The translations under genes were made by a program, and so were the position numbers. A stretch of DNA of 64,000 nucleotides from Eledone cirrhosa (Eukaryota), in NCBI GenBank assembly GCA_964016885.1, contig OZ024757.1, positions 27,218,001 to 27,282,000 on the forward strand. The letters are read 5' to 3'. Every line of letters starts with the position of its first letter. Position 1 is the stretch's first letter. Of this stretch, positions 4,987 through 56,430 are shown piece after piece. A model generated the notes under the pieces. That model worked only from the letters and a program-made list of their open reading frames with translations, did no database searches and had not been told where the DNA came from.

Positions 4987-5058
4987 ATTTCAGCTGATGA
5001 ATGGGCTGGACGTTTCTGTGAGAATAGTCTTGTTTCTTGAAACCTTTAGTAATGGAAT
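4987..5058 (+). ncRNA. Hammerhead ribozyme-like motif (partly degenerate)
   Basis: ATTTCAg-CTGATGA(4994)-stem II-GAAA(5039)-CCTTTAG-TA-aTGGAAT. Same family as 25111-25178. Confidence 0.55.
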
Positions 5059-5213
5059 AATTATATTGTGTTGTTTATTATGTAAATATATATATATATA
5101 TATATAGGCCAGGAAAGGGATAGGCTCCACCAGGCGTAAAATGCCCAAGAGACACCGTTTGTGAATATGGCACCCTTATGACTCTATCAGGAGATACGGA
5201 ACCATACCATATA

Positions 5214-6970
5214 TATCATCATCATCGTTTAACGTCCGTGTTCCATGCTTGCATGGGTTTGGACGGAGGGTTTTCCCACTTGAGGCAAGAGTGGTTATCT
5301 TGCTCGCATAGGACTATCTGGCGGGTTTTCTACAGCTGGATGCCCTTCCTAACACCAACCACATTTACAGTGTGGGGCTGGGAGGTTTTTACCGTGTTGC
5401 CTACACGGCCACATTACAGCGTGAACTGTGTGTTTTTTGACGTGACACCTACACAATCTCATTTGTTTCGGCCTGGATGTTGTGGCACCAACATAACTTT
5501 ACATTGAAAGGGGCGGTGTGGATGGGGTGGGGGTGGTGGGACGGGGGTGTATTTTGTTAGAGATGCCTACTGACTGTAGTAGGTTTTACTTTGTATTTAG
5601 GTAAGGCGGGTCTTCTCTATTACTGAGTACCGCCAAAGGTCTCGGTCCAGTGACATTGTCTTGGTGAGGTGTAAGTGTGTGAGGTCGGAATTTATCAGCT
5701 CGTCCCAGGTTTTTCTGGGTCTGCCTATTCCGTGGCTACCGTCTATCTTTATTGCCCTGCACTTTGTTATACAGCTATCGTCCTTCATGCGCATCACGTG
5801 ACCATACCAACGTAGCCTTCTCTCGAGTAAACAACATCTGATCCCTCTTATTTCTAATTTTTTCCTTAGTTCGTTTATGCTTTGCCGTTCACGTATATTA
5901 CTATTACACATCCAGCGGAGCATGCAAGCTTCGTTTCTCTCTAGTCTGCGTATATCCTCTGCACACAATGCCCAGGTCTCACTGCCATGCAACATTGCTG
6001 TTCGTATGCAGGCATCGTACAACCTGCCTTTCATTTTTAGGGAGAACCCTTTAGCGGCTAATAGTGGTATGAGCTCTCTGAACTTTTTCCACCCAGTTCT
6101 GACTCTAGCTACTGTACTTTCAGAGCACCCTCCCCCACTGCTGATTTTGTCACCCAGGTAACAGAAGGTGTCCACTATTTCTATAGAACCATCTGTGCAA
6201 TGGAATGAGCTAGTATTTTATGGGCACTTGCTGCTACTTATTGCACCAGAGCACCGGCCACATGTAAAATCTATGTTCTTAGTTAGCTTACCTGTGATCC
6301 CACTACATCTTTTATGCACCCAAACTTTGCATTTGGGACACAAAATGGAGTTTCTACCTACGCCTTTCCTACACTCTGAGCATGGCCACTTCCCGGAGGG
6401 GACCGCCACCTTGTTTTCTTTCTTACAAACTAGAACTTTAGTCTTAGCCAGGTTAATTTTAAGGCCTTTTGATTCTAGGCCGTGCTTCCATGTTTGGAAT
6501 TTCTTCTCTAGCTCGGCCATTGTTTCAGCTATGAGCGTTAGATCATCTGCATATAGGAGTTCCCATGGGCAGCCGGTCTTGAACTCCACTGTTATAGCCT
6601 GGAGGGCAATAATAAATAGTAGGGGGCTAAGAACAGAGCCCTGATGAACACCAACTTTTACACTAAACTCTTCACTATATTCGTTGTTAATTCTAACCTT
6701 GCTGACTGTTTCTTTATACATGGCTTGTATAGCTCTCACTAACCATTCATCAACACCTAGTTTTCTAAGAGCCCACCAGATAATGGAACGGGGGACTCTG
6801 TCGAAGGCTTTCTCCAAGTCGACGAAAGCTAAGTATAGGGGTTTACTTTTAGCTAGGTACTTCTCCTGTAGTTGTCGTACAATGAAAAGAGCGTCTGTGG
6901 TACTTTTTCCTGACACAAACCCGAACTGCATTTCATCAAGATCAATTCGCTCTCTGATTAGTTGCGCTAT

Positions 6971-6975
<5 letters not shown>
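5214..6975 (-). mobile_element. 5'-truncated RTE LINE (subfamily A variant), ORF broken by a premature stop
   Basis: ORFs 6218-6975 and 5597-6175 are one RT frame split by TAA (CAA>TAA at about 6218). 3' UTR and (GAT)n tail present; flanked by (TA)n. Confidence 0.92.
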
Positions 6976-7000
<25 letters not shown>

Positions 7001-7004
<4 letters not shown>

Positions 7005-7107
7005 AGCAAGACAATCACTCTTGCCTCAAGTGGGAAAACCCTCATCCAAACCCATGCAAGCGTGGAACACGGACGTTAAACGTTGATGATGATGATGATG
7101 ATGATGA
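7001..7107 (+). mobile_element. Very short RTE-A 3' end
   Basis: TGCGAGCAAGACAATCACTC...GGACGTTAAACGTT(GAT)n inside (TA)n. Confidence 0.85.
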
Positions 7108-7945
7108 TATATATATATATATATCTATAGTAATATTTATGAGAGTAAATTTTACTCATTTAGATAAGTTATATATATTATCTGTTGCTCTTGAATGATT
7201 TGTATTGATATTGCATTAACCATTTTGGATTTTAATTAAACCCTGATGATTCCTACAGTTTGTGCTAACTATTAGCAAATTGTTAAATAAAATAACTTGC
7301 TGTCGGTGGTATATTACAATGGGAGGAAACAATTGGCAGTGATTAAATATCTTGAACTTTTAATTTTGGTTTATAAGCACATTGTAATAATATATATATA
7401 TATATTAAACGTTAAACGATGATGATGATGATGATGATGATGATATATATATATATATACATGTATCTACGTGGCGATGAGCACTCTTCTATTTAATAGT
7501 TTTTATTTTAACACAATACATATTTATACAAATACTTAAACACATACCTCTAAACAAACACATAAAATCATACACAAACACACACACATCACTAATTCAA
7601 TAGTCACAAACACGCAAACAGACACACACACACATCACTTATTACACACAAGCACATACACATCACTAATTACTCACAAACATACACATACACACACACG
7701 AATCCCTCCCAGTAAAAGCAGTCAGATACAACCACAATTCCCAATTCTGAACATTCACATAATCACTCACACATTCATCAGCCCATTCACATCTGACTAA
7801 TGACATAAGACAATTAGCAAGCTGTTATGGTATTTACAGGTGTGATACATATACATATATATATATATACACACACACACGCATTCAAACATATATACAT
7901 ATATATAATTATATATATACACATACAAACATATACACAAATATA

Positions 7946-7983
<38 letters not shown>

Positions 7984-8423
7984 CAAACATATATACATAT
8001 TTATAATTATATATATATATACACACACATACAAACATAATATATACATATATATAATTATATACATGTATGTAAGTGTGTATGTTTTACCATCGTTTAA
8101 CACCTATTTTCCATACATATATATATGTGTGTGTGTATTTATTGTTTGTGTGTGTATGTACAAAGAGGTGGGTGGGGGAGAGATAAAATATTTTCACCCA
8201 ATGAGCAATAATTAAGCTACAGGAGAATTAAGTAATCAATGATGATGATGATGATGCTAAACAACAACAACAACAACAACAACAACAGCCAATGGTGATG
8301 ACTATGATTAGTAGTAATATTATAATTGTCAACATGGACATCATCATCACTATCATCATAATGAATTAATCATTATGTCATCATAGACACTATTATTCTG
8401 GCAAAACAATTAGAACAACTGGC

Positions 8424-9308
8424 TTAACCCTTTAGCATTTAAGTCAGCCATATCCGCCCAGAATTTTCTCACCAATTTCTGTTCAAACTGGCTGTAATCG
8501 GCCACTCATATTGACGTTAAGGTATTGTTCTCAAAATAAATAATATCAAAATCTCATAGATTTGATATTATGTGAGATAATTATGAGAGGTAAAGGCTTT
8601 TACTATGAAAATATAATAGTATATATAGTGTAATGTAAATGCTGAAGTGTTAACCCTTTCACTATATTTCTAATGAGAGACACTGCCAATGGTTTTCAAA
8701 TAATTTTGAGAATAATCGTAAATTTGGATAGATTCAGTAATACAAGACAGTTTCGCATTATTAAGTTGGTATTTGGAACATAACTGATCAAAAGTTCCCA
8801 CATAGAAATTCAATGGAAAGTTTGTAGATAAATATAAGCACCTTAACCCTTTAGCATTTAAACCAGCTGTATCTGGACAAAATTCTCTCACCTCTTTCTT
8901 TTCAAACCAGCCGTAACTTGCTACTAATAATTATGTTAATCTATTTTTCTCAAAATAAATAACATCAAAATCTCATAGATTTGATATTATGTGAGATAAA
9001 GCCTTTACCACGAAAATGCAATAGTAAATATAGAGTAATGTAAATATTAAAGGGTTAATCCTTTTGTTACCATATTTCTAATTAAAGTCACAGCATATGG
9101 CTTTCGAAAAATTATGAAAACCAAAAGATTGGATGGGTATAGTAACATAAATATCTTTCTCATTACTAAGCTGGTGTTTGGAACATCACTTATCAAAGGT
9201 TCTAATATAAAATGATGACAGAATGTTTTTTTTAGATAAATATAAGCACTTTGGAACAAACAGTTTCGTATCAGAGAAACAGGGACAGTTTGTTATCAAA
9301 AGGGTGAA
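8424..9308 (+). mobile_element. Nested/tandem piggyBac-like MITEs (TTAA termini)
   Basis: TTAACCCTTTAGCATTT...AATGTAAATGCT(AAAGGG)TTAA units at about 8424-8653 and 8843-9058, interleaved with a second TTAACCCTTT family. Further copies at about 9493, 16479, 32566, 35071, 43112, 48368, 51641(-), 54044, 59900(-), 61340(-). Confidence 0.75.
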
Positions 9309-10054
9309 ATATCTCTCAGCAACTATTTCATTACAATGTCTTGTGTTATGAGTTCCAATCCTGTTGCCAAGATGAAACCTACTCAGTAACCTACCCTATA
9401 AAGTGGTTGTGGTGGTACCATTATAAAATGCACCCAGTATACTATGTAAAATGGTCATGTTGGTGGCATGATAAAATGCACCCAGTACACCATTAACTCT
9501 TTAGTATTTAAACCGGCTGTATCCGGCCAGAATTCTCTCACCTTTTCAGTTCAAACCAGCTGTAACTGGTCACTCACGCTGATGTTAAGGTATTTTTCTC
9601 AAAATAAATAATATCAAAATTTTATAGATTCGATATTATGTGAAGTGAAGCCTCTTTCCCAAAATACAATAGTAAATATAGAGTAATGCAAATGCTAAAT
9701 GGTTAAGGTGTTTGGCATTAGGAAGGGCATCCAACTGTGGAAACCATGCCAAATATGGAATGTATGAACAAAATGGTCACTCCAATCCATCTGCAGACTG
9801 ATAACCTGTCCAACGTAAGCTAATATGGTGGGTCCTTAACTTCTATGGGTGACCCCAGAACACATGCAATACGTCAATATACAATAAAAAGACTAATTGC
9901 ATGTAAATGAAACTTCATCGTGTGTTTGCGCGAAGCTGTGGAGGAGAATAAGAGCCTACAAGGGAACAAATGAAGGCTTCAAAAACATCATCTTTGTCCA
10001 TTCCCTTGTCTTTTTAATTTGGATTGCCTCGAGAATCTAACCTTATTATGTAAG

Positions 10055-10133
10055 AAGCTGTCTGATGAGATCATGGCACTGGTTAGGCGGAATCGTGTGT
10101 CCACTGTCGTCATTGAAATATGTATCACAGCCT
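10055..10133 (+). ncRNA. Type I minimal hammerhead ribozyme
   Basis: GCTGT-CTGATGA(10062)-stem II (GAT.ATGGCA.TGG / CCA.TGTCGT.ATT)-GAAA(10115)-TATGTA-TC^ACAGC. Stem I GCTGT/ACAGC, self-complementary stem III, AUC cleavage triplet. Confidence 0.8.
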
Positions 10134-10259
10134 TATCAATAAAGGACTTTAACATCTGAAACTACTTCGCATTTTCTTATTTTATATATATAAGTTTATC
10201 CCGAGTTCAATCGGAGGTAACCACAGTAAGTAAGGTACTCAAAACATAGCAGAGTATAA

Positions 10260-10389
10260 ATATTTAATATAGAAATGCCTTCTACAGGACTAGAACTGTT
10301 TCATTCAGGAGAAATCATCAGGGCTTCCTGATGATTTCTCCGGAATGAAACAGTTCTAGTCCTGTAGAAGCCATTTCTATATTAAATAT
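10260..10389. repeat. About 60-bp-arm inverted repeat carrying back-to-back hammerhead cores
   Basis: Arms 10260-10321 and 10328-10389. CTGATGA-TTTCTCCGGAAT-GAAAC...GTC on + with a mirror copy on -. Related partial copy at about 3515-3570. Confidence 0.8.
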
Positions 10390-10650
10390 ATATATAGTAA
10401 TAATAATAAATGTGAAGACTAAAATCCAAAGAGGGCTCGATAAGGGTAAATATATATCAAATATATAAGAACCCTAGAGCAAATATTTATTAATATATAT
10501 ATATTTTATCTGCTCCTATTATTCATATGTTTTCCACCTCAGTTACCTTATATAAATATTAATGCTTGTGCTTATCTAACCTCTCATAATATATATCCTC
10601 CAAATGTTCTTGAAGCAAAGTTTTGATCTTATATTTGTGTTTAACTTTTG

Positions 10651-10705
10651 TAATAAGTCCGATGATTCCTTCCTTGTGCTGGGATGAAACGATCGTTAGT
10701 TGTTA
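10651..10705 (+). ncRNA. Hammerhead ribozyme-like motif (core U>C)
   Basis: TAATAAGT-CCGATGA-TTCC...GGGAT-GAAA-CGATCG-TT-AGTTGTTA; palindromic stem III. Confidence 0.6.
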
Positions 10706-10767
10706 AATGTTTGAAAGATTAAACACCCTTGATTATTATTTGTGTGTATATATATATATATATATAT

Positions 10768-10970
10768 AAAGAGTCAGGACCCCGACGGCTGAGCTCCGGC
10801 CATTTCAACAGTTAGATCCAAACATTCGGTGTTCGGATCTAGCTGTTGAAATGGCTGGAGCTCAGCCGTTGGGGTCCTGACTCTTTTTCTATTACCCACT
10901 CTACTACTCCAAGTATCATGTGCTCTGGTGTGTTATGGTCCACCTGGTTTCTTACCACACTTTCTTTGTT
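10768..10970 (+). mobile_element. Fold-back (hairpin + shared tail) element in (TA)n, divergent member
   Basis: About 55-bp-arm inverted repeat followed by tail CCCACTCTACTAC...CTTACCAC...TTTGTT. Homologous to 19954, 20757 and 29381. Confidence 0.8.
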
Positions 10971-10981
10971 ATATATATATA

Positions 10982-11130
10982 TCATCATCATCATCGTTTA
11001 ATGTCTATCTCCCACGCTAGCATGGGTTAGACGGGAGTTGTCCCACTTGAGGCAAGATTGGTTGGGTGATCGTGTCTTGCTTGTATAGGACTATCTGGCA
11101 GGTTTTCTACGGCTGGATGCCCTTCCTAAA
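10982..11130 (-). mobile_element. RTE-related 3' end fragment
   Basis: (CAT)n, CCACGCTAGCATGGG, GGATGCCCTTCCTAA. Similar copies at 25257-25500, 25935-26190 and 54233-54440. Confidence 0.75.
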
Positions 11131-11157
11131 TATATATGTATAAATACAATATATATC

Positions 11158-13422
11158 CTCAGGAGGAAAATATGGAAGTTAAAGGACCCCACAGCCAGGA
11201 ATAAATTTCAAAGCATATTACTTGATGCTTTCGACAGTAAGGAAGAACATTTAGAGTCGGACAATATAGAGGGAGAGTGGGAATTTCTGAAAGCAAACCT
11301 GCTGTTGGCGACAGACGAGGTCTGTGGCTGGAGCAGGCCTGTAGGCAGGAGGAGAGTAACATGGTGGTGGAACAGTAAGGTGGAGGGGTCAATTAAGGCC
11401 AAAAAGCAGGCTTGGAAAGTATGGCGGGATGGGGGAAGTAGAGAGGACTATCAAGTGGCCAGGAGGGAAGCTAGGAGACAAGTGTACTTAGCAAGAAGGG
11501 AAGCTGAGGAAAGAAAGTTCAAGCATGTTCTACAACGCGATGACCAAAAACGTGAGGTGTTCAGGATTGCTAGGCAATGCGTCAAGGAAAACCGTGATAT
11601 TGTCGGGGAGAAGTGTGTACTAAACGACGATGGCACACTTGCCATCACCGACGCTGATAAGAAGGTAGCTTGGAAGTGTCACTATGAAAGGCTTCTAAAT
11701 GAGGAGAATAATTGGGAGAAAGGCAGTCTCCCCCATATCGACCCAATAGAGGGACCAGCAGTGTTAGTCGAGGGGAGTATAATAAGTAAGGCAATCAAGG
11801 ATATGAAGACTGGTAAGGCGGCTGGGCCTTCGGAAATAGTTGCTGAGATGCTGAAGGCATCTGGCACGGTGGGACACACCATGGTCACCCGCATAGTTAA
11901 CCAAGTCGTACAAAACGGGGTTGTTCCGAAGGACTGGCATAGCAGCATCATCGTTAACTGTTATAAGGGTAAAGGAGACGCCCTAGATAGGAGTAACTAT
12001 AGAGGCATTAAATTAATCGACCAGGTCATGAAGGTCACGGAAAGAGTAATAGCGCAACTAATCAGAGAGAGAATTGACCTAGATGAAATGCAGTTCGGGT
12101 TTGTGTCAGGCAAAAGTACCACAGACGCTCTTTTCATAGTACGACAACTACAAGAGAAGTACCTAGCTAAAGGTAAACCCCTCTACTTAGCTTTTGTCGA
12201 CTTGGAGAAAGCCTTCGACAGAGTCCCCCGCTCCATTATCTGGTGGGCTCTTAGAAAACTAGGCGTTGACGAATGGCTTGTGAGGGCTATACAAGCCATG
12301 TATAAAGAAACAGTCAGCAAGGTTAGAATTAACAACGAATATAGTGAAGAGTTTAGCGTAAAAGTCGGCGTCCATCAGGGCTCTGTTCTCAGTCCACTAC
12401 TATTTATTATTGCCCTTCAGGCCATAACAGAGGAGTTCAAGACAGGCTGCCCATGGGAACTCCTATACGCAGACGACCTGACACTCATAGCGGAATCAAT
12501 GGCCGAGCTAGAGAAGAAATTCCAAACATGGAAGCACGGCCTAGAGTCAAAAGGACTTAAAATTAACCTGGCTAAGACCAAAGTACTAGTTTGTAGGAAA
12601 GAAAACAAGGCGGCGGTCCCTTCTGGGAAATGGTCGTGCTCGGTGTGTAGGAAAGGCGTAGGTAGAAACTCCATTTTATGTCCTAAATGCAAAGTATGGG
12701 TGCATAAAAGATGTAGTGGGATCACAGGTAGGCTAACTAAGAACATAGATTTTACATGTGGCCGGTGCTCTGGTGCAATAAGTAGCAGCAAGTGCCCACA
12801 AACTACTAGCTCTTTCAATTGCGCAGAGGGTTCTATAGAAATAGTGGACAGCTTCCGTTACCTGGGCGATAAAATCAGCAGTGGGGGAGGGTGCTCTGAA
12901 AGTACTGTAGCTAGAGTCAGAACTGGTTGGAAAAAGTTCAGAGAGCTTATACCACTATTAGCTGCTAAAGGGTTCTCACTAAAAATGAAAGGCAGGTTGT
13001 ACGATGCCTGCATACGAACAGCAATGCTGCATGGCAGTGAGACCTGGGCATTGTGTGCAGAGGATATACGCAGACTAGAGAGGAACGAAGCTTGCATGCT
13101 CCGCTGGATGTGTAACAGTAATATACGTGAACGGCAAAGCATAAACGAACTAAGGAATAAATTAGAGATAAGAGGGATCAGATGTTGTTTACTCGAGAGA
13201 AGGCTACGTTGGTATGGACACGTGATGCGCATGAAAGTCGATAGCTGTATAACAAAGTGCAGGGCAATAAAGATAGACGGTAGTCACGGAATAGGCAGAC
13301 CTAGAAAAACCTGGGACGAGCTGATAAACTCCGGCATCACACACTTACACCTCTCCAAGACAATGTCACTGGACCGAGACCTTTGGCGGTACTCAGTAAC
13401 AGAGAAGACCCGCCTTACCTAA
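11158..13422 (+). CDS. RTE ORF: tether (WWN) + RT + PHD finger + C-terminal domain, uninterrupted
   Basis: TWWWN, KAAGPSEI, YRGIKL, DLEKAFD, QGSVLSP, YADD, CSVC-x10-CPKC-x4-H-x2-C-x14-CGRC, YLG, GRPRKTW, DRDLWR. Confidence 0.92.
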   Translation, partial: LRRKIWKLKDPTARNKFQSILLDAFDSKEEHLESDNIEGEWEFLKANLLLATDEVCGWSRPVGRRRVTWWWNSKVEGSIKAKKQAWKVWRDGGSREDYQVARREARRQVYLARREAEERKFKHVLQRDDQKREVFRIARQCVKENRDIVGEKCVLNDDGTLAITDADKKVAWKCHYERLLNEENNWEKGSLPHIDPIEGPAVLVEGSIISKAIKDMKTGKAAGPSEIVAEMLKASGTVGHTMVTRIVNQVVQNGVVPKDWHSSIIVNCYKGKGDALDRSNYRGIKLIDQVMKVTERVIAQLIRERIDLDEMQFGFVSGKSTTDALFIVRQLQEKYLAKGKPLYLAFVDLEKAFDRVPRSIIWWALRKLGVDEWLVRAIQAMYKETVSKVRINNEYSEEFSVKVGVHQGSVLSPLLFIIALQAITEEFKTGCPWELLYADDLTLIAESMAELEKKFQTWKHGLESKGLKINLAKTKVLVCRKENKAAVPSGKWSCSVCRKGVGRNSILCPKCKVWVHKRCSGITGRLTKNIDFTCGRCSGAISSSKCPQTTSSFNCAEGSIEIVDSFRYLGDKISSGGGCSESTVARVRTGWKKFRELIPLLAAKGFSLKMKGRLYDACIRTAMLHGSETWALCAEDIRRLERNEACMLRWMCNSNIRERQSINELRNKLEIRGIRCCLLERRLRWYGHVMRMKVDSCITKCRAIKIDGSHGIGRPRKTWDELINSGITHLHLSKTMSLDRDLWRYSVTEKTRLT

Positions 13423-13817: not shown

Positions 13818-14069
13818 ATACAATATATATATATAGTAATAATAATAAATTTGAAGACTAAAATCCAAAGAGGGCTCGATAAGCGATTCTTTGCTTAAAC
13901 TTTAATCTGTTATTTTAATATATATATATACACACACACATATTCGACTTCTATATAGTTTCCACTGACAAAATATTGATTGGTAAACCCTAATCTATAG
14001 CAGCAGAGACAGTTACCTAATTTGACACAGTGTAGGGTTAAACCCAGGACCCCATGGGGCTGCTCAGCA

Positions 14070-18787: not shown

Positions 18788-18902
18788 ACTCAGAGGTGGG
18801 AGGAGGAAGCAATGTGGCAGTATGCTACTACGTCTGTCTCTCGGTCAAAAACATAACATTCTTTAAAGCTTACCATCATTCTATTGCTATACATCACGCA
18901 AT

Positions 18903-18965
18903 GTACACCTGATGAGGTCACCGGGGTCTTACACAACCTGGCCACTGAAATGTGCATCGTTTTTG
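18903..18965 (+). ncRNA. Type I minimal hammerhead ribozyme motif
   Basis: AC-CTGATGA(18909)-GGTCA...TGGCC-act-GAAA(18947)-TGTGCA-TC^GT. Stem I is short or eroded. Confidence 0.65.
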
Positions 18966-19161
18966 CAGAATTAAAAAATTAAGGAAATTCAACTTATTTG
19001 GCCTCCTGTCATTTCACTTTATAATACATTTGCTCCGTTCCTGCACCACCAACATGATTCAACATTAAAGATGGATGAGTTGCATAACATTGAGTGCTTT
19101 TCTCATATTACGTCATGTTTAACATTGCAAAATGACCAATTCTAACCAAATTTAACCGTGA

Positions 19162-23352: not shown

Positions 23353-25074
23353 TGTATATATTTACATATATATATATATGCATACATATCTATACATATA
23401 TATATTTAGTAGAAATAAAAGCTTTCGCTTTTTAGGATGCTAGTGGGCTTTTAAAATCCTCTAAAAATGGAAAAGGATGAGTATATATATATATATATAA
23501 CGGAACAAATATGACCGGGTGATGTGTTGTTTCCTTGAGCAAGACACTTTATTTCACATTGCTCCAGTTTACTCAGCTGTAGAAATGAGATGATAGGGAC
23601 TGGGGTCCATATCATTCCACTGCAAAGTGGTCGTGGAGGTGCCACAGCAAAAAAGCACCCAGCACTCACTGTAAATGAGGTTGGTGTTAGGAAGGGCATC
23701 CAGCTGTAGAAATCAAGCCAGAATCAGTTCCCGTCCTACCCTTGCAAGTAGGGAAAAAGCAGACGTAAAATGAAATGATGATGATGAATGATGATATATA
23801 TATATATATATATACATATATACACACTACACACACACAAGACAACCACTGAATCCTGTCTCATACATTGCTCATATTCAGATGTACGTGACAAAATTAC
23901 AAAAATTGTCAATATTTTTTGATGACTATTTGTTATTTTTTCCTGCTTGTTTTGTTTTATTTTTAGAAAAAATATTTTTAATTTGTAATTTACACAATAA
24001 TAATAATAATTATTGTGTGGATTGGCAGTATCGGTAGAGTGTCGGACAACATACTTTGTGGCACAGAGTTACAGCCTTTGCATTCTGAGTTAAAATCCTG
24101 CTGAAGTCATCTCTGCGTTATCTCTGCTCTATGGGGGTCGATAAATAAAATACCAGTAATGCACTGGGGTCAATTTAATCGATTTCCCCTCCCCAAAATT
24201 GTTGGCCTCGTGTCTAAATCAGAAACCATTATTAATTAATGTTAGAGTGTTGGACAAATTGTTGTATTCCGGTTCATTACATTATCAGTTCAAATACTGT
24301 TCAAGTTAACTTTGCTTTTCATTCCTTTGGGTTGATAAAATATAGTGTACTTGGGGTCAATTTAACCCTTTAGCATTTAAACCAGCTGTATCCGGCCAGA
24401 ATTCTTTCCCCTTTTTGAAACCGGCCATAACCAGCAGCTCAAACCTGCCAAACAAAGATCGGGAGGGTCCTTCAGCTGTATCAAAGTCATGACAACCTCC
24501 TGAGTGCTGGTGCTGTGATAAAATGAACTAGGTAGAGCATGGGAATGTAAATGAGATGCAGGCCCCTGGCTCATCTGTAAGGTCAGCAGCACTGCTTCAA
24601 TACTGATTTGGCCTATGACGACCCATCTTACCTTTGCTAGCAGGTAAAAAGGATGTATGAGGATGATCCGGCCAAATTTACAGTCCCCACAGGAGCAAAG
24701 TGTGACATAGCCAACCCTGGCCAGACTTGCTTCCTGGCATGGAGGACCCATCTAATCCACGCACGCATGGACGAATTGACACTAAACAGAAATGATGATG
24801 ATGATGATATATATATATGTGTGTGTGTGTGTAAAAGGTACATAGAAAAAATAAAACAAACAGTACAGAATATGGAAGGAATATATTAGTTTAATGCTTG
24901 AAATATCAGGAAGAGTGTCTTAACGTTTTGGATGCTAGTCCTTCATCAGAAGAAAGACTGAGAAATTAGAAAGATTGAGTGGTTGGGCAGGGTGGAAATA
25001 AATATATATATATATTAGGTAATTCCGAAGAAAAAGCAAAGGATAAAAGAGTGCTCTATGTATAGAACAGAGCT

Positions 25075-25255
25075 ATTTAATTAGGAAATGAACAACACAA
25101 TATATAATTACTCCATTACCAAAGGTTTCTGGATCCTAGACAATATTAATATATGCCTGGATCGTTCATCAGTCAGAGATGTTATAAATAGAAAATATCC
25201 TGAAACCTTTGGTAATGGAGTAGTTATATATTGTGTTGTTCACTTTCTAACTAAA
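25075..25255 (-). ncRNA. Inverted repeat with hammerhead motif on - strand (25111-25178)
   Basis: Minus: CTGATGA-acGATCC.AGGCA...TGTCT.aGGATCca-GAAA-CCTTTGG-TA^ATGGAG. Arms 25075-25130 and 25201-25255. Confidence 0.65.
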
Positions 25256-25504
25256 TCATCATCATCATCATCACCGTTTTACGTCCGTTCTTCCACGCTA
25301 GCATGGGTTAGATGGGCTGTCCTGTTGTGGGCAGTGTCCAGTCGGCTGACCTTGTCTTGCTCATACGGGAACCGATTGTAGCTTGCTTTCTACAGCTGGA
25401 TGCCCTTCCTAACACCAACGTCATTTACAGTAAGTGGTGGGTGCTTTTTTCCGTGGCACCTCCACGACCACTTTGCAGTGGGAGGGTGTGGTGGCATATT
25501 GTCT

Positions 25505-25550: not shown

Positions 25551-25801
25551 GTGAGGTTTTTTTTACAAAATGAAAAATAACCGAGGTGTCCTACGCGAGT
25601 GAAAGACCAACCAGATGTGAGAAAAACCACAGACCCTCCATCTCAACTCTACTTTTGAAAAGCAGAAGAACTGCGAAACCAAATAACCAAATAAATATAT
25701 ATATTTAAAAAAAAAAAGATACCAGTTGCATTTTCGATTTCATCTTTTTCCCTGATATATATATATATAAGAAATTAAAAGATGGTTAAAAAAGTTCCAT
25801 G

Positions 25802-25872
25802 TATTTTATTATGCGCATTTCAAAAACAAATATCATCCTGGGACGATATTTGCGTTCTCATCAGATAAAATA
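25802..25872 (-). ncRNA. Intact type I hammerhead ribozyme
   Basis: Minus: TATTTTAT-CTGATGA-GAACGCAAATATCGTCCCAGGATGATATTTGTTTTT-GAAA-TGCGCA-TA^ATAAAATA. 8-bp stem I, long stem II, palindromic stem III ATGCGCAT. Confidence 0.88.
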
Positions 25873-26854
25873 GGGAAACATAACATGATGCCTAAAAAAC
25901 ACTTGTGAACAAGGAAGTGTCCAGTTAACATATATCATCATCATCATCTTCGTTTAACGTCCATTTTCCACGCTAGCATGGGTTTGACGGGAGTTGTCCC
26001 ACTTGGGGCAAGGTTGGTCAGGTGACCACATCTCGCTCATATAGGACTATCTGGCAGGTTTTCTACGGCTGGATGCCCTTCCTAACACCAACCACATTTA
26101 CAGTGTGGAACTGGGAACTTTTTACCGTGTTACCTACACGGCCACATTACAGCGTGGACTGTCGTGTTTTTTTCTTGTGACAGCTACACGATTTCGATCT
26201 CGATCTCATTTATCTCATTTATTTATTATATATATATGTTGACGGGACTAGCATGTATTTCACTGCCAGTACCATTTGCATCTCAACGTACTCAATAGGT
26301 AATGTTATGTAAAATCCCAGAGTAGACACATAGTTAGTCACTTCAATACAACACACGTAAATGGGTACCATCAATATATACCCAGTTCATATATTGCACA
26401 CACTAATGCATGTTGTACATAACAACAATATTCATATATTGCACACGCTAATGCATGTATACAACAACAATAAAAACAACACAAGGTACCCAGCCAACAC
26501 CAAACTAGTTAGATATATAGAGAGCTATAGAACTTCATAAAACTTATATTTCAAACAGGAATATTGTTTTTCTTAGACTGAGTGGGGGGTGGGGTGGGGT
26601 AAGACAGTGGAGATGAAGAATGACGGTGATGGGGGGAGGGAGTTGTCTACATGTATATGTGTGTGAATGTGTATGTATGTGTATGTGTGTGTGAGAGAGA
26701 TAGAGAGAGAAGGAAAGGTGGAGAGAGCAGGAGAAGGGGAGAGGAGAGAAAGAGGAGAGAGAGTTAGAGAGAAACAGAGAGAATCAGAGAGAGAGGAGAG
26801 AGAGGGAAGCAGAGAGAGAGAGGGGGGAGAGAGGAGAGAGAGAGAGAGAGAGAA

Positions 26855-30030: not shown

Positions 30031-30567
30031 GGAATATATATCGTTTTTCACAAAAATGCTATAAAAAGTTAAAACCATAGGTGGAGAAGTTAAACACAGC
30101 TCAAAATAGAGTAATTTATCATAATAAGCAAAACAAAAGGCTATGTATCAAACCTTCTGAAAGAATTGTCCAAAAAGGTCTGCATACAAATTCCTATTGT
30201 GCCAAAAATTACAAATATACTAGAAGCAAATTATATATATATAATATTATTAATAATAATAACAATATTGTTATTACTAAGTTGAAACTTTACCAGAAAG
30301 TTGTAAGCGTGATGCAATGGTGGTTCACGTAAAGAATCAATGCATTTTCACTGTATAAAACCATAAAGAATTAATTTTTTTTTCAAATTAGAAAAAAAAT
30401 TTCAATTTAAAAGTCTGTAACTACCTTGGAATGAAGTTCTATTGGCTAAAACATATGTTAGTTTGAAAATGCATTGATTCTTTGGTGCTTTTTTATAAAT
30501 AGTACATATATATATATATATAGTGACGAAACATAAGTCAATTGCATGAACTCATAACCCTTTATTT

Positions 30568-30625
30568 ACTGCTATATATATATTTCGATGATAGCCATTG
30601 AATGGCTATGACCTCATCAGGCAGT
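30568..30625 (-). ncRNA. Intact type I hammerhead ribozyme
   Basis: Minus: ACTGC-CTGATGA-GGTCATAGCCAT-TCA-ATGGCTATCATC-GAAA-TATATATA-TA^GCAGT. Confidence 0.85.
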
Positions 30626-30740
30626 TAGTCAGTTCTTAGATATGCCAGCTCTGTGTTTATGGTGTTGATGGTATCAGAGCCTTGGGACACACATATATAT
30701 ATATATATATAGGAATATATATATATATATATATATATAT

Positions 30741-32390
30741 AGGCCGGACCATCGGGAATAGTTGCTGAGATGCTGAAGGCATCAGGGGACGTAGGCACTA
30801 AACTGGTTGCACGCATAATCAATCAGGCTATATATGGTGGTGTCATACCCAAAGACTGGTGCAGCAGTATTCTCATAAATTGCTACAAAGGTAAAGGGGA
30901 TGCTTTGGAGAGGAGCAATTATAGGGGTATAAAACTGATAGATCAGGTTATGAAAGTGGCAGAAAGGATTTTAGCACAACTAATTAGAGAAAGGGTCAAA
31001 CTAGATGAGATGCAGTTTGGTTTTGTGCCTGGGAAGAGTACAACAGATGCCCTCTTCTTGGTGAGACAAATGCAAGAGAGGTTCTTAGAGAAGAATAAGC
31101 CACTATACTTGGCCTTTGTTGACCTAGAGAAGGCCTTTGATAGGGTACCCCGATCTGTCATCTGGTGGTCCCTAAGGAAGCTGGGTGTTGAGGAATGGCT
31201 TGTAAGGACAGTGCAAACTTTGTACAGAGGTACTCTCAGTAAAGTCAGGGTAGGAATGGAGTTTAGTGAGGAATTCCAGATACAAGTAGGAGTACATCAG
31301 GGTTCGGTCCTCAGCCCGCTCTTGTTCATTATAGTCCTCCAAGCCATAACAGAGGAGTTTAAGACTGGCTGTCCATGGGAACTTCTCTATGCTGACGATC
31401 TGGCTCTTATGGCAGAATCAGTAGAGGAGCTAGAGAATAAATTCCGGCTATGGAAACAGCAGTTGGAAGCAAGAGGACTGAGAGTAAATCTAGCTAAGAC
31501 AAAAGTGTTGATGAGTAGAAAAGAGGACAAAACCCTGATTCCGTCAGGGAAATGGCCATGTTCGATATGCAGAAAAGGAACTGGCATAAATTCTATAAAA
31601 TGCACACAATGTAGGTCCTGGGTACACAAGAGATGTAGCGGGATAGCAGGCAAACTAACAGGTAGGGAGAAATATGTATGCAGTAGATGTACAGGGAAAT
31701 TAGACAGTAGAAGTCGCACTGATAGACACATTTTTCAAATGCGAGAGGGCGCTATAGAAGTGGTGGATAACTTCCGGTACCTAGGAGATCAGATTAGCAT
31801 GGGAGGAGGGTGTTCCGAGGCCATAGTATCTAGAATAAGGACGGGTTGGAAGAAGTTTAGGGAGCTGCTTCCTCTGTTGACGAAGAAGGGTTTCTCCCTG
31901 CGTACGAAAGGCCGGTTGTATGATGCCTGTGTGAGGAGCGCGATGCTGCATGGTAGTGAGACATGGGCAGCTACCGCAGAAGATATGCGACGGCTGGAGA
32001 GAAATGAGGCAAGCATGCTCCGTTGGATGTGCAGTGTAAATGTGCGTGAACGACCCAGCATAAATGTGTTGAGAGAGAAACTGTGTCTGAGAGGGATAGA
32101 ATGTAGTGTACGGGAGAGGAGACTGAGGTGGTATGGACATGTGATGCGCATGGAGGATGACCGATGGGTGAAGAAGTGCCAGGAAATGCCAGTTGAAGGA
32201 AGACGTAGTAGAGGTAGACCACGAAAAACATGGGCGGAGGTGGTGAGAACAGACCTCAGATCATTGAAGCTCACGGTGGAGATGACGAGGGACCGTGACG
32301 AGTGGAGAGATGCTGTGCTGAATAAGACCCGTCCCACCCTTGCAAGCAGGGAAAAGCGGACGTAAAATGATGATGATGATGATGATGATG
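30741..32390 (+). mobile_element. 5'-truncated RTE LINE, subfamily B
   Basis: RT ORF runs to 32365, almost directly into the (GAT)n tail (no long UTR); 5' end in (TA)n. Confidence 0.95.
30743..32365 (+). CDS. RTE-B reverse transcriptase with PHD finger, truncated
   Basis: AGPSGIVAEMLK, YRGIKL, DLEKAFD, QGSVLSP, YADD, CSIC...CTQC...HKRC...CSRC, FRYLG. Confidence 0.9.
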   Translation, partial: AGPSGIVAEMLKASGDVGTKLVARIINQAIYGGVIPKDWCSSILINCYKGKGDALERSNYRGIKLIDQVMKVAERILAQLIRERVKLDEMQFGFVPGKSTTDALFLVRQMQERFLEKNKPLYLAFVDLEKAFDRVPRSVIWWSLRKLGVEEWLVRTVQTLYRGTLSKVRVGMEFSEEFQIQVGVHQGSVLSPLLFIIVLQAITEEFKTGCPWELLYADDLALMAESVEELENKFRLWKQQLEARGLRVNLAKTKVLMSRKEDKTLIPSGKWPCSICRKGTGINSIKCTQCRSWVHKRCSGIAGKLTGREKYVCSRCTGKLDSRSRTDRHIFQMREGAIEVVDNFRYLGDQISMGGGCSEAIVSRIRTGWKKFRELLPLLTKKGFSLRTKGRLYDACVRSAMLHGSETWAATAEDMRRLERNEASMLRWMCSVNVRERPSINVLREKLCLRGIECSVRERRLRWYGHVMRMEDDRWVKKCQEMPVEGRRSRGRPRKTWAEVVRTDLRSLKLTVEMTRDRDEWRDAVLNKTRPTLASREKRT

Positions 32391-37282: not shown

Positions 37283-38295
37283 ACAGTCCACGCTGTAAAT
37301 GTGGCCGTATAGGCAACACGGTAAAAACCTCCCAGCCCCACACTGTAAATGTGGTTGGTGTTAGGAAGGGCATCCAGCTGTAGAAAACCCGCCAGACAGT
37401 CCACGCTGTAATGTGGCCGTGTAGGCAACACGGTAAAAACCTCCCAGCCCCACACTGTAAATGTGGTTGGTGTTAGGAAGGGCATCCAGCTGTAGAAAAC
37501 CCGCCAGACAGTCCACGCTGTAATGTGGCCGTGTAGGCAACACGGTAAAAACCTCCCAGCCCCACACTGTAAATGTGGTTGGTGTTAGGAAGGGCATCCA
37601 GATGTAGAAAACCCGCCAGACAGTCCACGCTGTAATGTGGCCGTGTAGGCAACACGGTAAAAACCTCCCAGCCCCACACTGTAAATGTGGTTGGTGTTAG
37701 GAAGGGCATCCAGCTGTAGAAAACCCGCCAGACAGTCCACGCTGTAATGTGGCCGTGTAGGCAACACGGTAAAAACCTCCCAGCCCCACACTGTAAATGT
37801 GGTTGGTGTTAGGAAGGGCATCCAGATGTAGAAAACCCGCCAGACAGTCCACGCTGTAATGTGGCCGTGTAGGCAACACGGTAAAAACCTCCCAGCCCCA
37901 CACTGTAAATGTGGTTGGTGTTAGGAAGGGCATCCAGCTGTACAAAACCTGCCAGACAGTCCATGCTGTAATGTGGCCATGTAGGCAACATGGTAAAAAC
38001 CTCCCAGCCCCACACTGTAAATGTGGTTGGTGTTAGGAAGGGCATCCAGCTGTACAAAACCTGCCAGACAGTCCACGCTGTAATGTGGCCATGTAGGCAA
38101 CATGGTAAAAACCTCCCAGCCCCACACTGTAAATGTGGTTGGTGTTAGGAAGGGCATCCAACTGTAGAAAACCCGCCAGACAGTCCTATGCGAGCAAGAC
38201 AACCACTCTTGCCTCAAGTGGGAAAACCCCCGTCCAAACCCATGCAAGCGTGGAACACGGACGCTAAACCTGATGATGATGATGATGATGATGAT
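37283..38295 (+). repeat. 8 x 112-bp tandem array of RTE-A 3' UTR, ending in the normal RTE 3' terminus
   Basis: Units start ACAGTCC at 37283, 37396, 37508, 37620, 37732, 37844, 37956 and 38068; a final ACAGTCC at 38180 continues to (GAT)n. Confidence 0.95.
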
Positions 38296-44455: not shown

Positions 44456-44523
<68 letters not shown>

Positions 44524-44846: not shown

Positions 44847-44997
44847 GCAACATCGTCAGTGGTGCTATTATGTTTCCTCCTGTTGTATTGTATGCCTACG
44901 CCATCTTTCGAAGATGCTGTAGGCATACAATACAACGGGAGGAAACATAATAGCACCACTGACGATGTTGCAGATGTGCAACGAAAGAACTTTGTTA
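44846..44997 (+). ncRNA. About 62-bp-arm palindrome running into a hammerhead motif (44953-44996)
   Basis: Arms 44846-44908 and 44910-44972. CACCA-CTGACGA-tGTTGCA-GATG-TGCAAC-GAAA-GAAC-TT-TGTT. Confidence 0.65.
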
Positions 44998-45191
44998 GAC
45001 TATATATATGTATTTGTGTCTATATTATATCTGTATTTTTGACCGTTGGTCAGTCAATGGTAACATTGAGGACCGAATAAATTAAATTAACCGATATAAA
45101 AGACAGAGAAGTGAAAACCAACCAAATAGTGAGTGTGTTCTGTTATTAATTCTGGCAATATTATTACACAAATATGACCCTCCCCAAGTAT

Positions 45192-45260
<69 letters not shown>

Positions 45261-50249: not shown

Positions 50250-50615
50250 ACTAGAAGACAATTTGAGCCAGGTACCAGCTGTTAGACAACAATTTGACAC
50301 AGGTCTCAGCTGATAGAAGACAATTTAACTCATGTGTCAGCTGCTGGAAGACAATTTGACTCGAGTCTTAGCTGCTAGGAGATAATTTGACCCAGATGTC
50401 TCCTGCTAGAAGACAATTAACCTCAGGTGTCAGTGACTAGAAGACAATTTAAACTGGATCTCAGTTACTAGAAGACAATTTGATCCATGTGTCTTCTGCT
50501 AGAAGACAATATGACCCAGATCTCAGCTGTTAGAAGACAATTTGGCCCAGGTGTCTCCTGGTAGAAGAAAATTTATCCCAGGTGCCTGTTGCTCAGTGGG
50601 ATTGAACCTGGAATC
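50250..50615 (+). repeat. 31-bp minisatellite (about 11 units) ending in an antisense SINE B-box
   Basis: Unit about CTAGAAGACAATTTGACCCAGGTGTCAGCTG; terminal CAGTGGGATTGAACCTGG. Confidence 0.85.
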
Positions 50616-50825
50616 AAACTTCCTAAGTAAATATAGAGAGACAATATAATTTTATCTCTATATCCAACATAACTGTCTCATCAGTCAGTGACTTACATAT
50701 ATATAACCTACACTATCTCCCTCTTTCTCTCTAACCTACATACACTATCTCTCTCTCTCTCTCTCTCTAACCTACATACACTATCTCTCTCTCTCTCTCT
50801 CTCTCTCTCTAACCTACATACACTA

Positions 50826-50874
<49 letters not shown>

Positions 50875-50964
50875 GTTATATATATATATATATATACACA
50901 CATATATATAACCTACACTATCTCCCTCTTTCTCTCTAATCTACATACACTATCTCTCCATCCA

Positions 50965-50996
<32 letters not shown>

Positions 50997-52590: not shown

Positions 52591-53235
52591 ATCATCATCA
52601 TCAACGTTTAACGTCCGTGTTCCACGCTTGCATGGGTTTGGACGGGGGTATTCCCACTTGAGGCAAGAGTGATTGTCTTGCTCGCATAGGACTGTCTGGC
52701 AGGTTTTCTACAGTTGGATGCCCTTCCTAACACCAACCACATTTACAGTGTGGGTCTGGGAGGTTTTTACCGTGTTGCCTACACGGCCACATTACAGCGT
52801 GGACTGTGTGTTTTTTTGTCGTGACACCTACACGATCTCATTTGTTTCGGCCTGGATGTTGTGGCACCAACATAACTTTACATAGGAGGGGGTTGTGTGG
52901 ATGGGGTGTGGGTGGTGGGACGGGGGTGTATTTTGTTAGAGATGCCTACTGGCTGTAGTAGGTTTTACTATGTATTTAGGTAAGGCGGGTCTTCTCTATT
53001 ACTGAGTACCGCCAAAGGTCTCGGTCCAGTGACATTGTCTTGGAGAGGTGTAAGTGTGTGAGGTCGGAGTTTATCAGCTCGTCCCAGGTTTTTCTAGGTC
53101 TGCCTATTCCGTGGCTACCGTCTATCTTTATTGCCCTGCACTTTGTTATACAGCTATCGACTTTCATGCGCATCACGTGTCCGTACCAACGTAGCCTTCT
53201 CTCGAGTAAACAACATCTGATCCCTCTTATTTCTA

Positions 53236-53240
<5 letters not shown>
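52591..53240 (-). mobile_element. Short 5'-truncated RTE-A copy
   Basis: C-terminal ORF end + 3' UTR + (GAT)n; both ends in (TA)n. Confidence 0.92.
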
Positions 53241-53276
<36 letters not shown>

Positions 53277-53280
<4 letters not shown>

Positions 53281-53606
53281 AGTCCCTGGTATTCGTGGGG
53301 TTACACTCCTAGAGCAACCGCGAAAATTGGACGTAGTCCATAAAAATGCCTAGAAGCGTAAAAATATAATAAAAAATGAGGGACCGCCTTATGCAAAAGG
53401 GGTGTCCAATAGGCCAGCAAATATCATATTGTCATTAATAATTTAGCGTTAAAACATATATTTTGACACAAAAAGAGTCATTAAAAAATTGCAGAAGATA
53501 TTTACGATTCCGCGAAGATGCGGTGGTTTCCATGAACAATTATTAATTAGGTTCTTATGAAAATTTCGCGAATAACTGGGACCGCAAATGCCGAGGGTAC
53601 ACTCTA
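53277..53606. mobile_element. Tc1/mariner (Tigger-like) MITE
   Basis: Imperfect TIRs CAATAGTCCCT.GGTATTCGTGG / CCGCAAATGCCGAGGGTACACTC, TA flanks. Confidence 0.6.
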
Positions 53607-53682
53607 TATGTATGTGTGTATATATATATATATACACACAGCAGGGAAAAGCAGATGTAAAATGATGATGATGCTGATGATG

Positions 53683-53716
<34 letters not shown>

Positions 53717-54865
53717 GTATATGTATGTATATGTCTGTGATTGGAAAGGAAACCAATCACACACACACACACACACTACTTCAAGTATAGGTCATATTGT
53801 TTCTCAACAGTTTACCATTCTCTATAGTGGCACCTAAGATTAAGCATGATTATTAGATGCCATAGAAAGGCAAAGTTTTGAGGGTATTCTGTAGTTGTTA
53901 TATTAAATGTGGGATTTTGAAAGCTGAGGATAGCAAGACAAGTGATTCAAAAATGGAACTTTGTAAAGTTCTCGTTTTCGGTGTGTGTGAATGTGTCTGG
54001 CTTAGAAAAGGTACACTGTATCCCTGCATGTTGTAAAAATCAGTTAACCCTTTAACATTTAAACCAGTCGTATCTGGCCAGAATTCCCTCACCTCTTTCT
54101 GTTCAAACTGGCTGTAACCAGCTGCTCATACTGAGGTTAAGGTATTGTTCTCAACATACGTAATATGAAAATCTCATAGATTCATTATTATTTGAGATAA
54201 TTTTGTGAGTTATAACCTTTACTATAAAAATCATCATCACCGTTTTACGTCCATTCTTCCACACTAGCATGGGTTAGACGGGTTGTCCTGTTGTGGGCAA
54301 CGCCAGGTCAAGTGACTATGTCTTGCTCATAGAGAACTGATTTTGGCTTGATTTCTACAGCTGGATGCCCTTCCTAACACCAACCTCATTTACAGTGAGT
54401 ACTGGGTGCTTTTTTTTACCGTGGCGCCTACACAACTGAAAATATAACAGTATATATAGAGTAATGTAAATACCAAAGGGTTAAAAGAGTTGGTGCCAGG
54501 AAAGGCACCCAGCTGTTATACCAGTATGGAATGGTTCATGTAAAAATGATGATGATGGTAGTATAATTGTAAATCTGAGCACTCGTAACGAGGACAGATG
54601 TTGGAAAAATGGAGCCACACAGATGCACGCTCAAATCTTTATGTCATTGGCTCTGCTGGGTCTCACCACAATTTCTGTGCAATAAGAAGAGGATTATTCA
54701 TCCCAGTGCACCATGGAAGACAACACAAGATGAACATTCTGTCTACCACTGCCACATACATAACACTGTCAATCATTTTTGGGAAGAGGGGAAATCATTT
54801 AAAACGACCCCAGTGCATATGTTACTGGTACTTTATTCTATTGACACCGTAGAGGGAGGAGAAGG

Positions 54866-54896
<31 letters not shown>

Positions 54897-56238
54897 GGAG
54901 GAGGAGGAGGAGGAGGAGGAGGAGAAGAAGAAGAGTTAAAGAGAAACAGGTAAAGGAAGAGAGAAAAACGAAAGAAAACAAAGAAAGAAGGAAAGCAGGT
55001 AAGGAAAGAGAAGGAAAGAAGGATAGAAAGAAAGAAAAAGCATAGAAAAGGAAAGAGAGAAGGACATGGAGGAAGAATGAAAGGAAAAAAAGGAAGAAAG
55101 AACGGAAGAGAAAAAGAAAGAAAGATGGTAAGAAGAGAGAGAGAGAGAGAGAGAGCTGAGTCAGGTGTTCTGTGGTAGGTAATTTGTTGTATATAATAAA
55201 CTCTGTGGAAAAGTGGTTGTTTTCTGGTTAAAATTACTACAAATAGACATTCCATCACGTTGCCCTTCAGTGCAACTGTCTGTCTCTCTTCACCTCTACT
55301 TGTCACCCCCTCTCTCTCACTATCTATCTATGTATTTGTCTATCTATCTATTTTCTCACTTTTACTATTTATCTATCTCTGTGTCTGTCTATATATCTAT
55401 ATCTATCTATCTATCTATCTATCTATCACTAAATTTAAAGCAAACCTATTACTTATGGTGAGCTACACTGATTGAGTGCTGATTAAGAGGTCAATAAGAT
55501 CAGATGCCGTTCCAGATTGTAGGTCAGTAGGTTCAAATCCCATGGGGGTAACTAGCCTATTGTGTTGTTCATATTATTGGTGTCCATTATAATTATTACT
55601 ACTACTAGGGCGGTGGATTGGCAGTATCGGTAGAGGGTCGGACGCCATGCTTTGACGCATAGAGTTATGGCCCTTGCCATTCTGAGTTAAAATCCCGCTG
55701 AGGTTAACTTTGCCTTTCATCCTTATGGGGTCGATAAAATAAAGTACCAGTAATACACTGGGTAATTGCTGGCCTTGTGCTAAAAGTAGAAACAATTATA
55801 ATTATTACTACTACTTAGCCCAATGTTTAACACAGCGAATAAGTAATCTTCAATTATGCACACACACAAGTGTGTGTGTGTAATGCATGAAATTGCATGC
55901 TAGAAGGTGGCTGAATCGATAAAAATGCAGTTGTATGTTCAGCTTATGTAACTTTTTCTGCTAATACTATATATATCATGTATCATATCATCATCATCAT
56001 CATTTTACGTCCGCTTTTTCCTGCTTGCAAGGGTGGGACGGGAACTGATTCTGGCTTGATTTCTACAGCTGGATGCCCTTCCTAACACCAACCTCATTTT
56101 ACAGTGAGTGCTGGATGCTTTTTTGCCGTGGCACCTGCACGACCACTTTGCAGTGGTATGATAAGGACCCCAGTCCCTATCATCTCATTTCTAATATATA
56201 TATATATATTTATGTAATAAACAGCATAAGGCAATTAT

Positions 56239-56296
56239 TCCATTTACCAGTGGTTTCTTAAAAGCAAAAAATTTTGCTTTCAATCATCAGAATGAA
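56239..56296 (-). ncRNA. Intact type I hammerhead ribozyme (left arm)
   Basis: Minus: TTCATT-CTGATGA-TTGAAAGCAA...TTGCTTTTAA-GAAA-CCACTGG-TA^AATGGA. Confidence 0.85.
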
Positions 56297-56372
56297 AAAA
56301 TCCTGGTCTGTTTATTGAATTTGGATTCTAAAAACTTATTGAATCCAAATTCAATAAACAGACCAGGATTTT

Positions 56373-56430
56373 TTCATTCTGATGATTGAAAGCAACATTT
56401 TTTGCTTTTAAGAAACCACTGGTAAATGGA
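56373..56430 (+). ncRNA. Intact type I hammerhead ribozyme (right arm)
   Basis: TTCATT-CTGATGA(56379)-TTGAAAGCAACATTTTTTGCTTTTAA-GAAA(56412)-CCACTGG-TA^(56424)AATGGA. Confidence 0.87.

Follow-up and report, generated by a model that had tools for sequence, protein, structure and literature searches.

Minimal hammerhead ribozymes in (TA)n insertions of the Eledone cirrhosa genome as probable ends of Penelope-like elements

Elements that carry minimal type I hammerhead ribozymes (HHRs) are a known kind, in print since 2014, and their link to Penelope-like elements (PLEs) is right. Published minimal HHRs share a core, a long stem II and a palindromic stem III, come in many divergent families per genome, mostly as single motifs, with opposite-strand pairs 100-700 bp apart, and number in the thousands (~9,000 in X. 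tropicalis). In the work behind the dimer model (PMC4209133), a monomer did not cleave and dimers cleaved weakly. Hydra-clade PLEs (Craig et al. 2021, PMC8557442) combine an open reading frame (ORF) of ~2.1 kb with an HHR in the pseudo-long terminal repeat (pLTR), (TA)n targets, an inverted 5′ copy and a tail. With the Poseidon element PAc of Anolis (Frangieh et al. 2024, PMC11167929), both target strands are cut and extended in vitro, and the tail is delimited by two internal start sites of reverse transcription, with uncleaved RNA as the template. Non-LTR retrozymes (Cervera and de la Pena 2020, PMC7229834; Li et al., bioRxiv 10.64898/2026.07.22.740005) bear a type I HHR in ORF-less repeats. 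Here we analysed a 64-kb window, the whole stretch from 27,218,001 to 27,282,000 of contig OZ024757.1 in the 3.0-Gb assembly of Eledone cirrhosa. The hammerhead motifs that it contains are probably minimal type I HHRs from PLE pLTRs; the insertions that carry them stand alone or head to head within (TA)n and likely arose through internal starts of reverse transcription.

The window was scanned with a strict type I descriptor consisting of CUGANGA, a paired stem II, GAAA, stem III, NUH and stem I, with no requirement for full palindromicity of stem III; the controls were dinucleotide-keeping shuffles of the window, 100 at each of three block sizes. Exactly five loci matched, the same that an initial annotation of this DNA had called intact (10055, 25802, 30568, 56239 and 56373):

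10057-10131, + strand, HHR matching the strict descriptor
25872-25802, - strand, HHR matching the strict descriptor
30625-30568, - strand, HHR matching the strict descriptor
56297-56238, - strand, HHR matching the strict descriptor
56372-56431, + strand, HHR matching the strict descriptor

The shuffles gave a mean of 0.04-0.06 matches and a maximum of 1 per shuffle. A relaxed descriptor adds 10322-10372(+), with U.U at the base of stem II (shuffle mean 0.07 in a similar scan), and six window motifs thus have the type I core (CUGANGA, GAAA), stems I and II and NUH. Rfam returned no hammerhead match for the window motifs (best 150 of 260 rows, plus targeted scans), with microsatellite microRNA matches dominating. 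TA, CA and triplet microsatellites abound in the window, as do fragments of long interspersed nuclear elements (LINEs).

In total the window contains 12 insertions from 11 families (9 unrelated groups), and the six intact motifs lie within five of them:

56206..56330, - strand, F56 inverted tail-less arm, intact HHR 56297-56238
56340..56525, + strand, F56 forward arm, intact HHR 56372-56431 and a ~60-nt tail; pLTR of a PLE classed by motifs as Hydra-type
25755..25932, - strand, solo F25864 copy with intact HHR 25872-25802, forming the 3′ end of a second family classed as Hydra-type
30522..30688, - strand, solo F30620 copy without a tail, with intact HHR 30625-30568; pLTR belonging to a third family classed as Hydra-type
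9927..10190, + strand, solo F10062 copy with intact HHR 10057-10131, the end of a partial-tandem element of ~1.3 kb without an ORF
10200..10395, both strands, F10328 palindromic insertion; the + arm has the complete HHR 10322-10372, and the - arm has a tail and lacks the 5′ strand of stem I
44850..45190, + strand, F44959, inverted short arm 44850-44908 and the 3′ pLTR of a PLE classed by motifs as Neptune-type; HHR core at 44959
18808..19148, + strand, solo F18909 copy whose HHR (about 18905-18962) has a damaged stem I
25008..25256, - strand, F25172, main copy with tail and core 25172, first stem I pair mismatched, F56-related; short inverted tail-less arm at 25198-25256
4982..5085, + strand, solo F4994 copy with a damaged HHR (core 4994), a relative of F56 and F25172
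24870..24990, - strand, F24949 insertion, HHR 24953-24918 with GAAA changed to AAAA
10638..10741, + strand, F10651 remnant, U4C core change, palindromic stem III retained
3503..3569, - strand, 5′-truncated fragment of the F10328 family, start of the core missing

The loci that the annotation had listed as partial (4987, 10328, 10651, 18903, 25111 and 44953) belong to real families, that at 10328 being complete under the relaxed descriptor and the others damaged. Its statement that stems differ completely between loci was too broad: the 56239 and 56373 motifs are two arms of one palindromic insertion, 95% alike, the 10321 and 10328 motifs are likewise two arms of one insertion, and 4994, 25172 and 56379 have stem III and the 3′ flank in common (76-83%). 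Six further loci are damaged members of families with other copies in the genome. At 4994 and 25172 the mismatched first pair of stem I is formed in relatives, and at 18909 stem I is altered while its pairing is kept in family copies; 10651 has two relatives, and 24918(-), which had been called eroded, at least 12 further family copies. At 44959 stem I consists of only 2 contiguous pairs, as in all 13 family copies inspected by eye. The other two loci described as eroded were rejected as hammerheads: neither 3655(-) nor 7243, which lacks GAAA, has a relative in 387 of the 394 fetched loci (7 window-overlapping or duplicate loci omitted). A candidate at 50684 was also rejected. The motifs have the core, long stem II, palindromic stem III, divergent families, prevalence of single motifs and opposite-strand pairs of published minimal HHRs; they differ in that stem III is often a 6-10 nt palindrome, where in the published motifs it is nearly absent, and G10.1-C11.1, retained there, is not kept in F56 and F10328.

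Beyond the flanks of four of the five traced families (F56, F25864, F30620 and F44959) we found ORFs with reverse transcriptase (RT) and GIY-YIG endonuclease, and these families are the ends (pLTRs) of ORF-bearing PLEs, as the link to PLE pseudo-LTRs in the initial annotation had implied. In genomic loci L151 and L153 an F56 pLTR 97.8% identical to the window copy lies ahead of the ORF and recurs downstream of it, L151 being a tandem with a 4.6-kb period; colinear sequence far downstream is common to 16 of 30 loci, and long copies continue into the ORF. The translated product carries RWK, DKT, the RT motifs DFYPSI and YRDD, a CxCx5C linker, CxxC and CxH, and an endonuclease of the form VVY...YVG without inner cysteines. 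The L153 ORF thus has the full set of Hydra-clade characters (RWK, DKT, CxCx5C, CxxC, CxH, no CCHH, <3 kb), as in the elements of PMC8557442, with which the F56 parent also shares an ORF of about 2.1 kb. Relatives of this RT are 700-750-aa proteins with PF26215, the best match (bivalve) also having GIY-YIG. F25864 has the C-terminal part of a Hydra-like protein 0.9-1.5 kb upstream on the same strand in 7/30 loci, and past the 87-nt tail F30620 leads to an RT 40% identical to that of the F56 parent in L373, L374 and L391. F44959 is preceded by an ORF whose translation (L159) has a CX4CxxC linker and a CCHH-type endonuclease; by motifs (CX2-5CxxC linker, CCHH) its parent is classed as Neptune-type, with Nematis as the alternative clade. 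The fifth traced family, F10062, is a non-autonomous, ORF-less unit of ~1.3 kb: past the tail the sequence returns to a second ribozyme copy 1.0-1.6 kb on in 7/30 loci, and no frame exceeds 99 aa in five units checked. The suggestion that these elements are mostly non-autonomous therefore stands for the copies, most of which lack an ORF, but not for the traced families, only one of which is an ORF-less unit. F25172 and F4994 are sequence relatives of F56. The endonuclease profile PF01541 gave 10,596 first-look candidates in the assembly.

The 3′ region of the F56 Hydra element contains a second hammerhead, HHR-B, ~1.7 kb upstream of the cleavable copy (L151:5719-5820, L152, L153:7092-7185, L154, L155 and L053), a feature that sets the F56 parent apart from the Hydra-clade PLEs of PMC8557442. 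HHR-B is 91% like the pLTR copy, with a mostly intact core and G at position 17 in 10/10 copies, and may be either a nested hitch-hiking insertion or a cleavage-dead dimer partner. A strong polypyrimidine tract ending in CAG, resembling a 3′ splice site, lies ~70 nt upstream of an F56 hammerhead (L153:4255-4283); in the published D. virilis Penelope an intron ends at the HHR.

These families are abundant throughout the genome. First-look candidates, for which 40 per family were scored and which are not copy numbers, amount to 3,662 for F56, 1,632 for F25864, 566 for F30620, 2,644 for F10062, 2,567 for F18909 and 4,061 for F10328. In a systematic sample of 60 evenly spaced 10-kb stretches (600 kb, 12 shuffles) we counted 56 intact motifs in 20 of the 60 stretches against 0-1 per shuffle, and F44959 had 17 matches. 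Since 19 of the 56 belong to one 468-bp tandem array, counting the array once leaves 38 per 600 kb, or ~63/Mb, which extrapolates to ~1.9e5 genome-wide (bootstrap 1.0-3.0e5), against the counts in the thousands reported for minimal HHRs. At this density the window, with six motifs in 64 kb, is ordinary. All fetched loci together contain 436 intact motifs in 43 clusters, 20 of which occur in at least 2 loci, in a set where many loci were selected for carrying these families and some overlap. Together with insertions on both strands, this is in line with the large radiation that had been envisaged. For the axolotl, 126,247 HHR motifs are reported (PMC7229834) in a genome of 28.21 Gb, about 4.5 per Mb; the density here is provisionally about 14-fold higher, a ratio qualified by the different descriptor behind the axolotl count. 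The array, at L310:380-9400 (contig C22, 12.0 Mb), is a retrozyme-like satellite built of tandem 468-bp units, 19 of which carry an intact type I HHR; solo relatives of the unit occur in L293, L314 and L085. Locus L265:51-5407 is a 5.4-kb inverted repeat (93%) with nested HHR inserts of four families, which suggests that PLE copying carries the ends of other families along.

The copies of all families examined stop at discrete 3′ positions next to (TA)n, a short one and another lying 60-90 nt or more further on, and their flanks bear out the TA targeting that had been proposed; the inverted 5′-truncated copy and the optional 3′ tail of PLE pLTRs are both present. Tail ends are fixed: that of F10062 in 20/20, and that of F56 also as a loose end followed by TA in 4/4 public runs of one study, which consist of contigs of unrecorded kind and are uninformative on expression. 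One sample, that of F30620, was picked solely by its tail-arm pattern (30 of 208 matches, 29 insertions). An inverted partner is present in 14 of the 29, and in 12 of these 14 it ends at the no-tail site. The 5′ ends of 10/14 pairs lie within 32 nt of each other, although these ends are spread between -400 and +67 from the core, an arm ends at -59 to -73, a CATATG palindrome, in 11/29, and only 1/29 starts at the cleavage site. In F56 palindromes the two arms agree at a T/G subfamily site in 31/31 insertions (18 T/T, 13 G/G), arm divergence is 1.5% within and 3.0% between insertions, and the central inversion junction varies from copy to copy. The agreement at the T/G site together with the variable junction indicates that each palindrome was made anew from a single template.

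We propose that reverse transcription is likely initiated internally on the element RNA, a short distance downstream of the ribozyme. The PLE protein would nick (TA)n on both strands and prime complementary DNA (cDNA) at two start sites on uncleaved RNA; most events would leave solo ends, extension ceasing once 100-300 nt had been copied, in many cases at ATAT or a short palindrome, while priming on both strands would produce two cDNAs of the same RNA that are joined head to head through 2-6 nt of microhomology. This last step, the joining of two cDNAs into tail/no-tail palindromes, we regard as about an even bet. Ribozyme function would be confined to the transcript of the parent element, where two copies would pair via the palindromic stem III, probably aided by protein, and the scattered copies would likely be passengers that rarely cut host RNA. 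Poseidon PAc resembles the families described here in its AT-rich targets and in a tail set by two internal starts of reverse transcription; however, it belongs to another clade, and its start site in vitro is the same for both strands, as opposed to the tail/no-tail pairing in 12/14 cases here.

Several observations weigh against this scheme. Both the PLE origin and the mechanism are read from DNA sequence, and the Hydra and Neptune assignments follow from motifs; Pfam recognised none of the Hydra-type ORF pieces, tblastn with PLE proteins found no PLE ORF inside the window, and five families (F10328, F18909, F24949, F10651 and F25172/F4994) have no traced parent, the ORF search having covered F10328 and F18909, for which 30 loci each gave no common colinear ORF. 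In F10328 the arms diverge by 4.2% within and 4.7% between insertions. The tail/no-tail pairing is incomplete, with 2/14 F30620 partners carrying a tail, and could in part arise from a commoner no-tail start. At a site in the F56 stem II loop (window 56397; L001-L051) the tail arm has C and the tail-less arm A in 11 insertions against 0 reversed, an asymmetry that the scheme does not account for and that query ranking inflates; the A perfects the stem II hairpin. More generally, likeness to a palindromic query set the ranking of the F56 and F10328 samples, which are hence biased towards its structure.

The main competitor for the palindromes, somewhat less probable than not, is that they formed by snap-back of one cDNA, or by self-priming on an antisense template, without a second cDNA. 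PMC3846280, which describes solo pLTRs, tails and junction palindromes, favours self-priming for such structures, and this route predicts both the identical arms and the matched truncation points that we observed, as well as junctions located on short palindromes. What it accommodates poorly is the extent of the arms: in the 12 F30620 pairs the tail-less arm reaches further 5′ in 5, the tail arm in 3, and 4 are level within 1 nt, and in F10328 the tail-less arm reaches further in 27/30 loci of the query-biased sample. Snap-back from the tail arm cannot yield a longer tail-less arm without trimming, and snap-back from the tail-less arm cannot supply the tail. Since either arm can extend further 5′, two cDNAs joined by microhomology fit better. 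That the short copies are instead self-propagating, non-autonomous retrozymes, transcribed, self-cleaved, circularised and re-inserted in trans by PLE proteins, seems unlikely as a general account. F10062, with its direct HHR pairs, and the L310 array are ORF-less head-to-tail repeats with one HHR per unit, although the F10062 unit is longer than the 51-972 bp reported for retrozymes; the depth of pLTRs in the public runs is far above that of ORFs (609,602 versus 1,025-33,548 in run X1), a figure that does not measure copy number, and the 2026 preprint (bioRxiv 10.64898/2026.07.22.740005) argues for a derivation of retrozymes from PLE pLTRs. Yet retrozymes are tandem, whereas the window copies are solo or inverted, and neither they nor F56, F25864, F30620 and F44959, which run into coding elements, show such head-to-tail repeats. 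None of 30 F30620 loci showed a direct dimer (among the matches listed, one each), starts at the cleavage site are as rare as described above, and the variable inversion junctions mean that palindromes were not copied as units. Given their identity with PLE ends and the PLE hallmarks that they carry, most copies resemble truncated derivatives of coding elements rather than retrozymes.

The dispersed copies might also act as cleavage sites that shape host transcripts, which we consider improbable. The core and NUH are intact in 75/83 copies of F56, 30/34 of F25864 and 25/29 of F30620, and solo copies are only 2-3.5 kcal/mol from the stem I/II fold, but the sampled copies are young or query-like, so their intactness requires no selection. 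In folding computations 8/9 stem III strings form no stable hairpin alone, while 8/9 form a homoduplex (-1.7 to -12.8 kcal/mol; 44959, +1.4); in whole palindromes the active fold is disfavoured by 65-78 kcal/mol, and such copies are predicted to be locked in hairpins. Besides the non-cleaving monomers of the dimer model, 8/9 Xenopus HHR dimers did not cleave (bioRxiv 10.64898/2026.07.22.740005), and the Anolis PLE ribozyme is protein-assisted and dispensable in vitro (PMC11167929). Because stem III needs a partner copy, palindromes lock and published minimal HHRs are weak or protein-dependent, working cleavage sites in host transcripts from these loci are doubtful, and most of the predicted 100,000-300,000 intact-looking motifs are probably silent. 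The spread of F44959 with two stem I pairs suggests that efficient cleavage is not needed for propagation. Finally, an origin of the motifs by chance in AT-rich, microsatellite-rich DNA can be ruled out for the 12 insertions. CUGANGA by itself does occur about 24 times in the shuffled window, and 3655 and 7243 proved unsupported; but the whole motif gives 5 against 0.05 in the window and a comparable excess in the 600-kb sample, and it recurs in families tied to PLE ORFs. The PLE-end reading of the insertions is preferred.

The literature search returned, among the matches listed, no report of hammerheads in cephalopod or octopus genomes; the supplements of PMC8557442 and PMC13282606 may hold some of these families, and the main text of the latter, a 2026 O. 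vulgaris repeat annotation, does not contain the terms ribozyme or hammerhead. Novelty seems to lie in the host group, in the scale, in how prominent the Hydra-type families are and in a usable record of how inversions arise. With their fixed 3′ ends and variable junctions, the young insertions, which number in the thousands, allow the formation of PLE inverted repeats and tails to be tested by counting, and the many natural HHR variants offer a test of the importance of the ribozyme to the element. Palindromic copies in host transcripts would form double-stranded RNA hairpins of 70-125 bp, likely substrates for A-to-I editing. In the boldest version, which we put forward tentatively and as somewhat less probable than not, no denser hammerhead genome has been described (>20 PLE families and ~60 intact motifs per Mb), the second half of PLE transposition is written in its insertions, in that a dimeric enzyme copies one RNA twice from two fixed starts and joins the cDNAs head to head, and the G17 hammerhead of one Hydra family is a built-in dimer partner.

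Other repeats accompany these insertions. A near-perfect hairpin element with ~70-bp arms and no hammerhead core lies in (TA)n at 10752-10890, with relatives in many fetched loci. An inverted-arm repeat at 30060-30490 adjoins the 30620 insertion; its segment 30060-30234 is a 76% match to L361/L362, where a further HHR-like 3′ half is present. Locus L002 (contig C919:57274-60624) is a 97% copy of the ~56-kb window region with many T-to-C differences, possibly a haplotig or a low-quality duplicate. The long ORFs at 1749-3422(-), 5597-7075(-), 11089-13422(+) and 30743-32365(+) were rejected as parent elements, the two that were scanned being LINE proteins with RVT_1 and a PHD finger. These LINE copies, presumably RTE-like, are young and 5′-truncated; the first three are 94-99% alike, with (ATG)n tails beside (TA)n. 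Eight 112-bp tandem units at 37283-38186, 98% alike, match the 3′ region of the RVT_1/PHD LINE. Two dispersed short repeat families, resembling short interspersed nuclear elements or miniature inverted-repeat transposable elements, have 7-9 copies each in the window, one at 8424-9663, 16480, 43102, 48368 and 54044 and the other at 110, 15663, 40395, 44075, 49687, 51896, 52118 and 58302.

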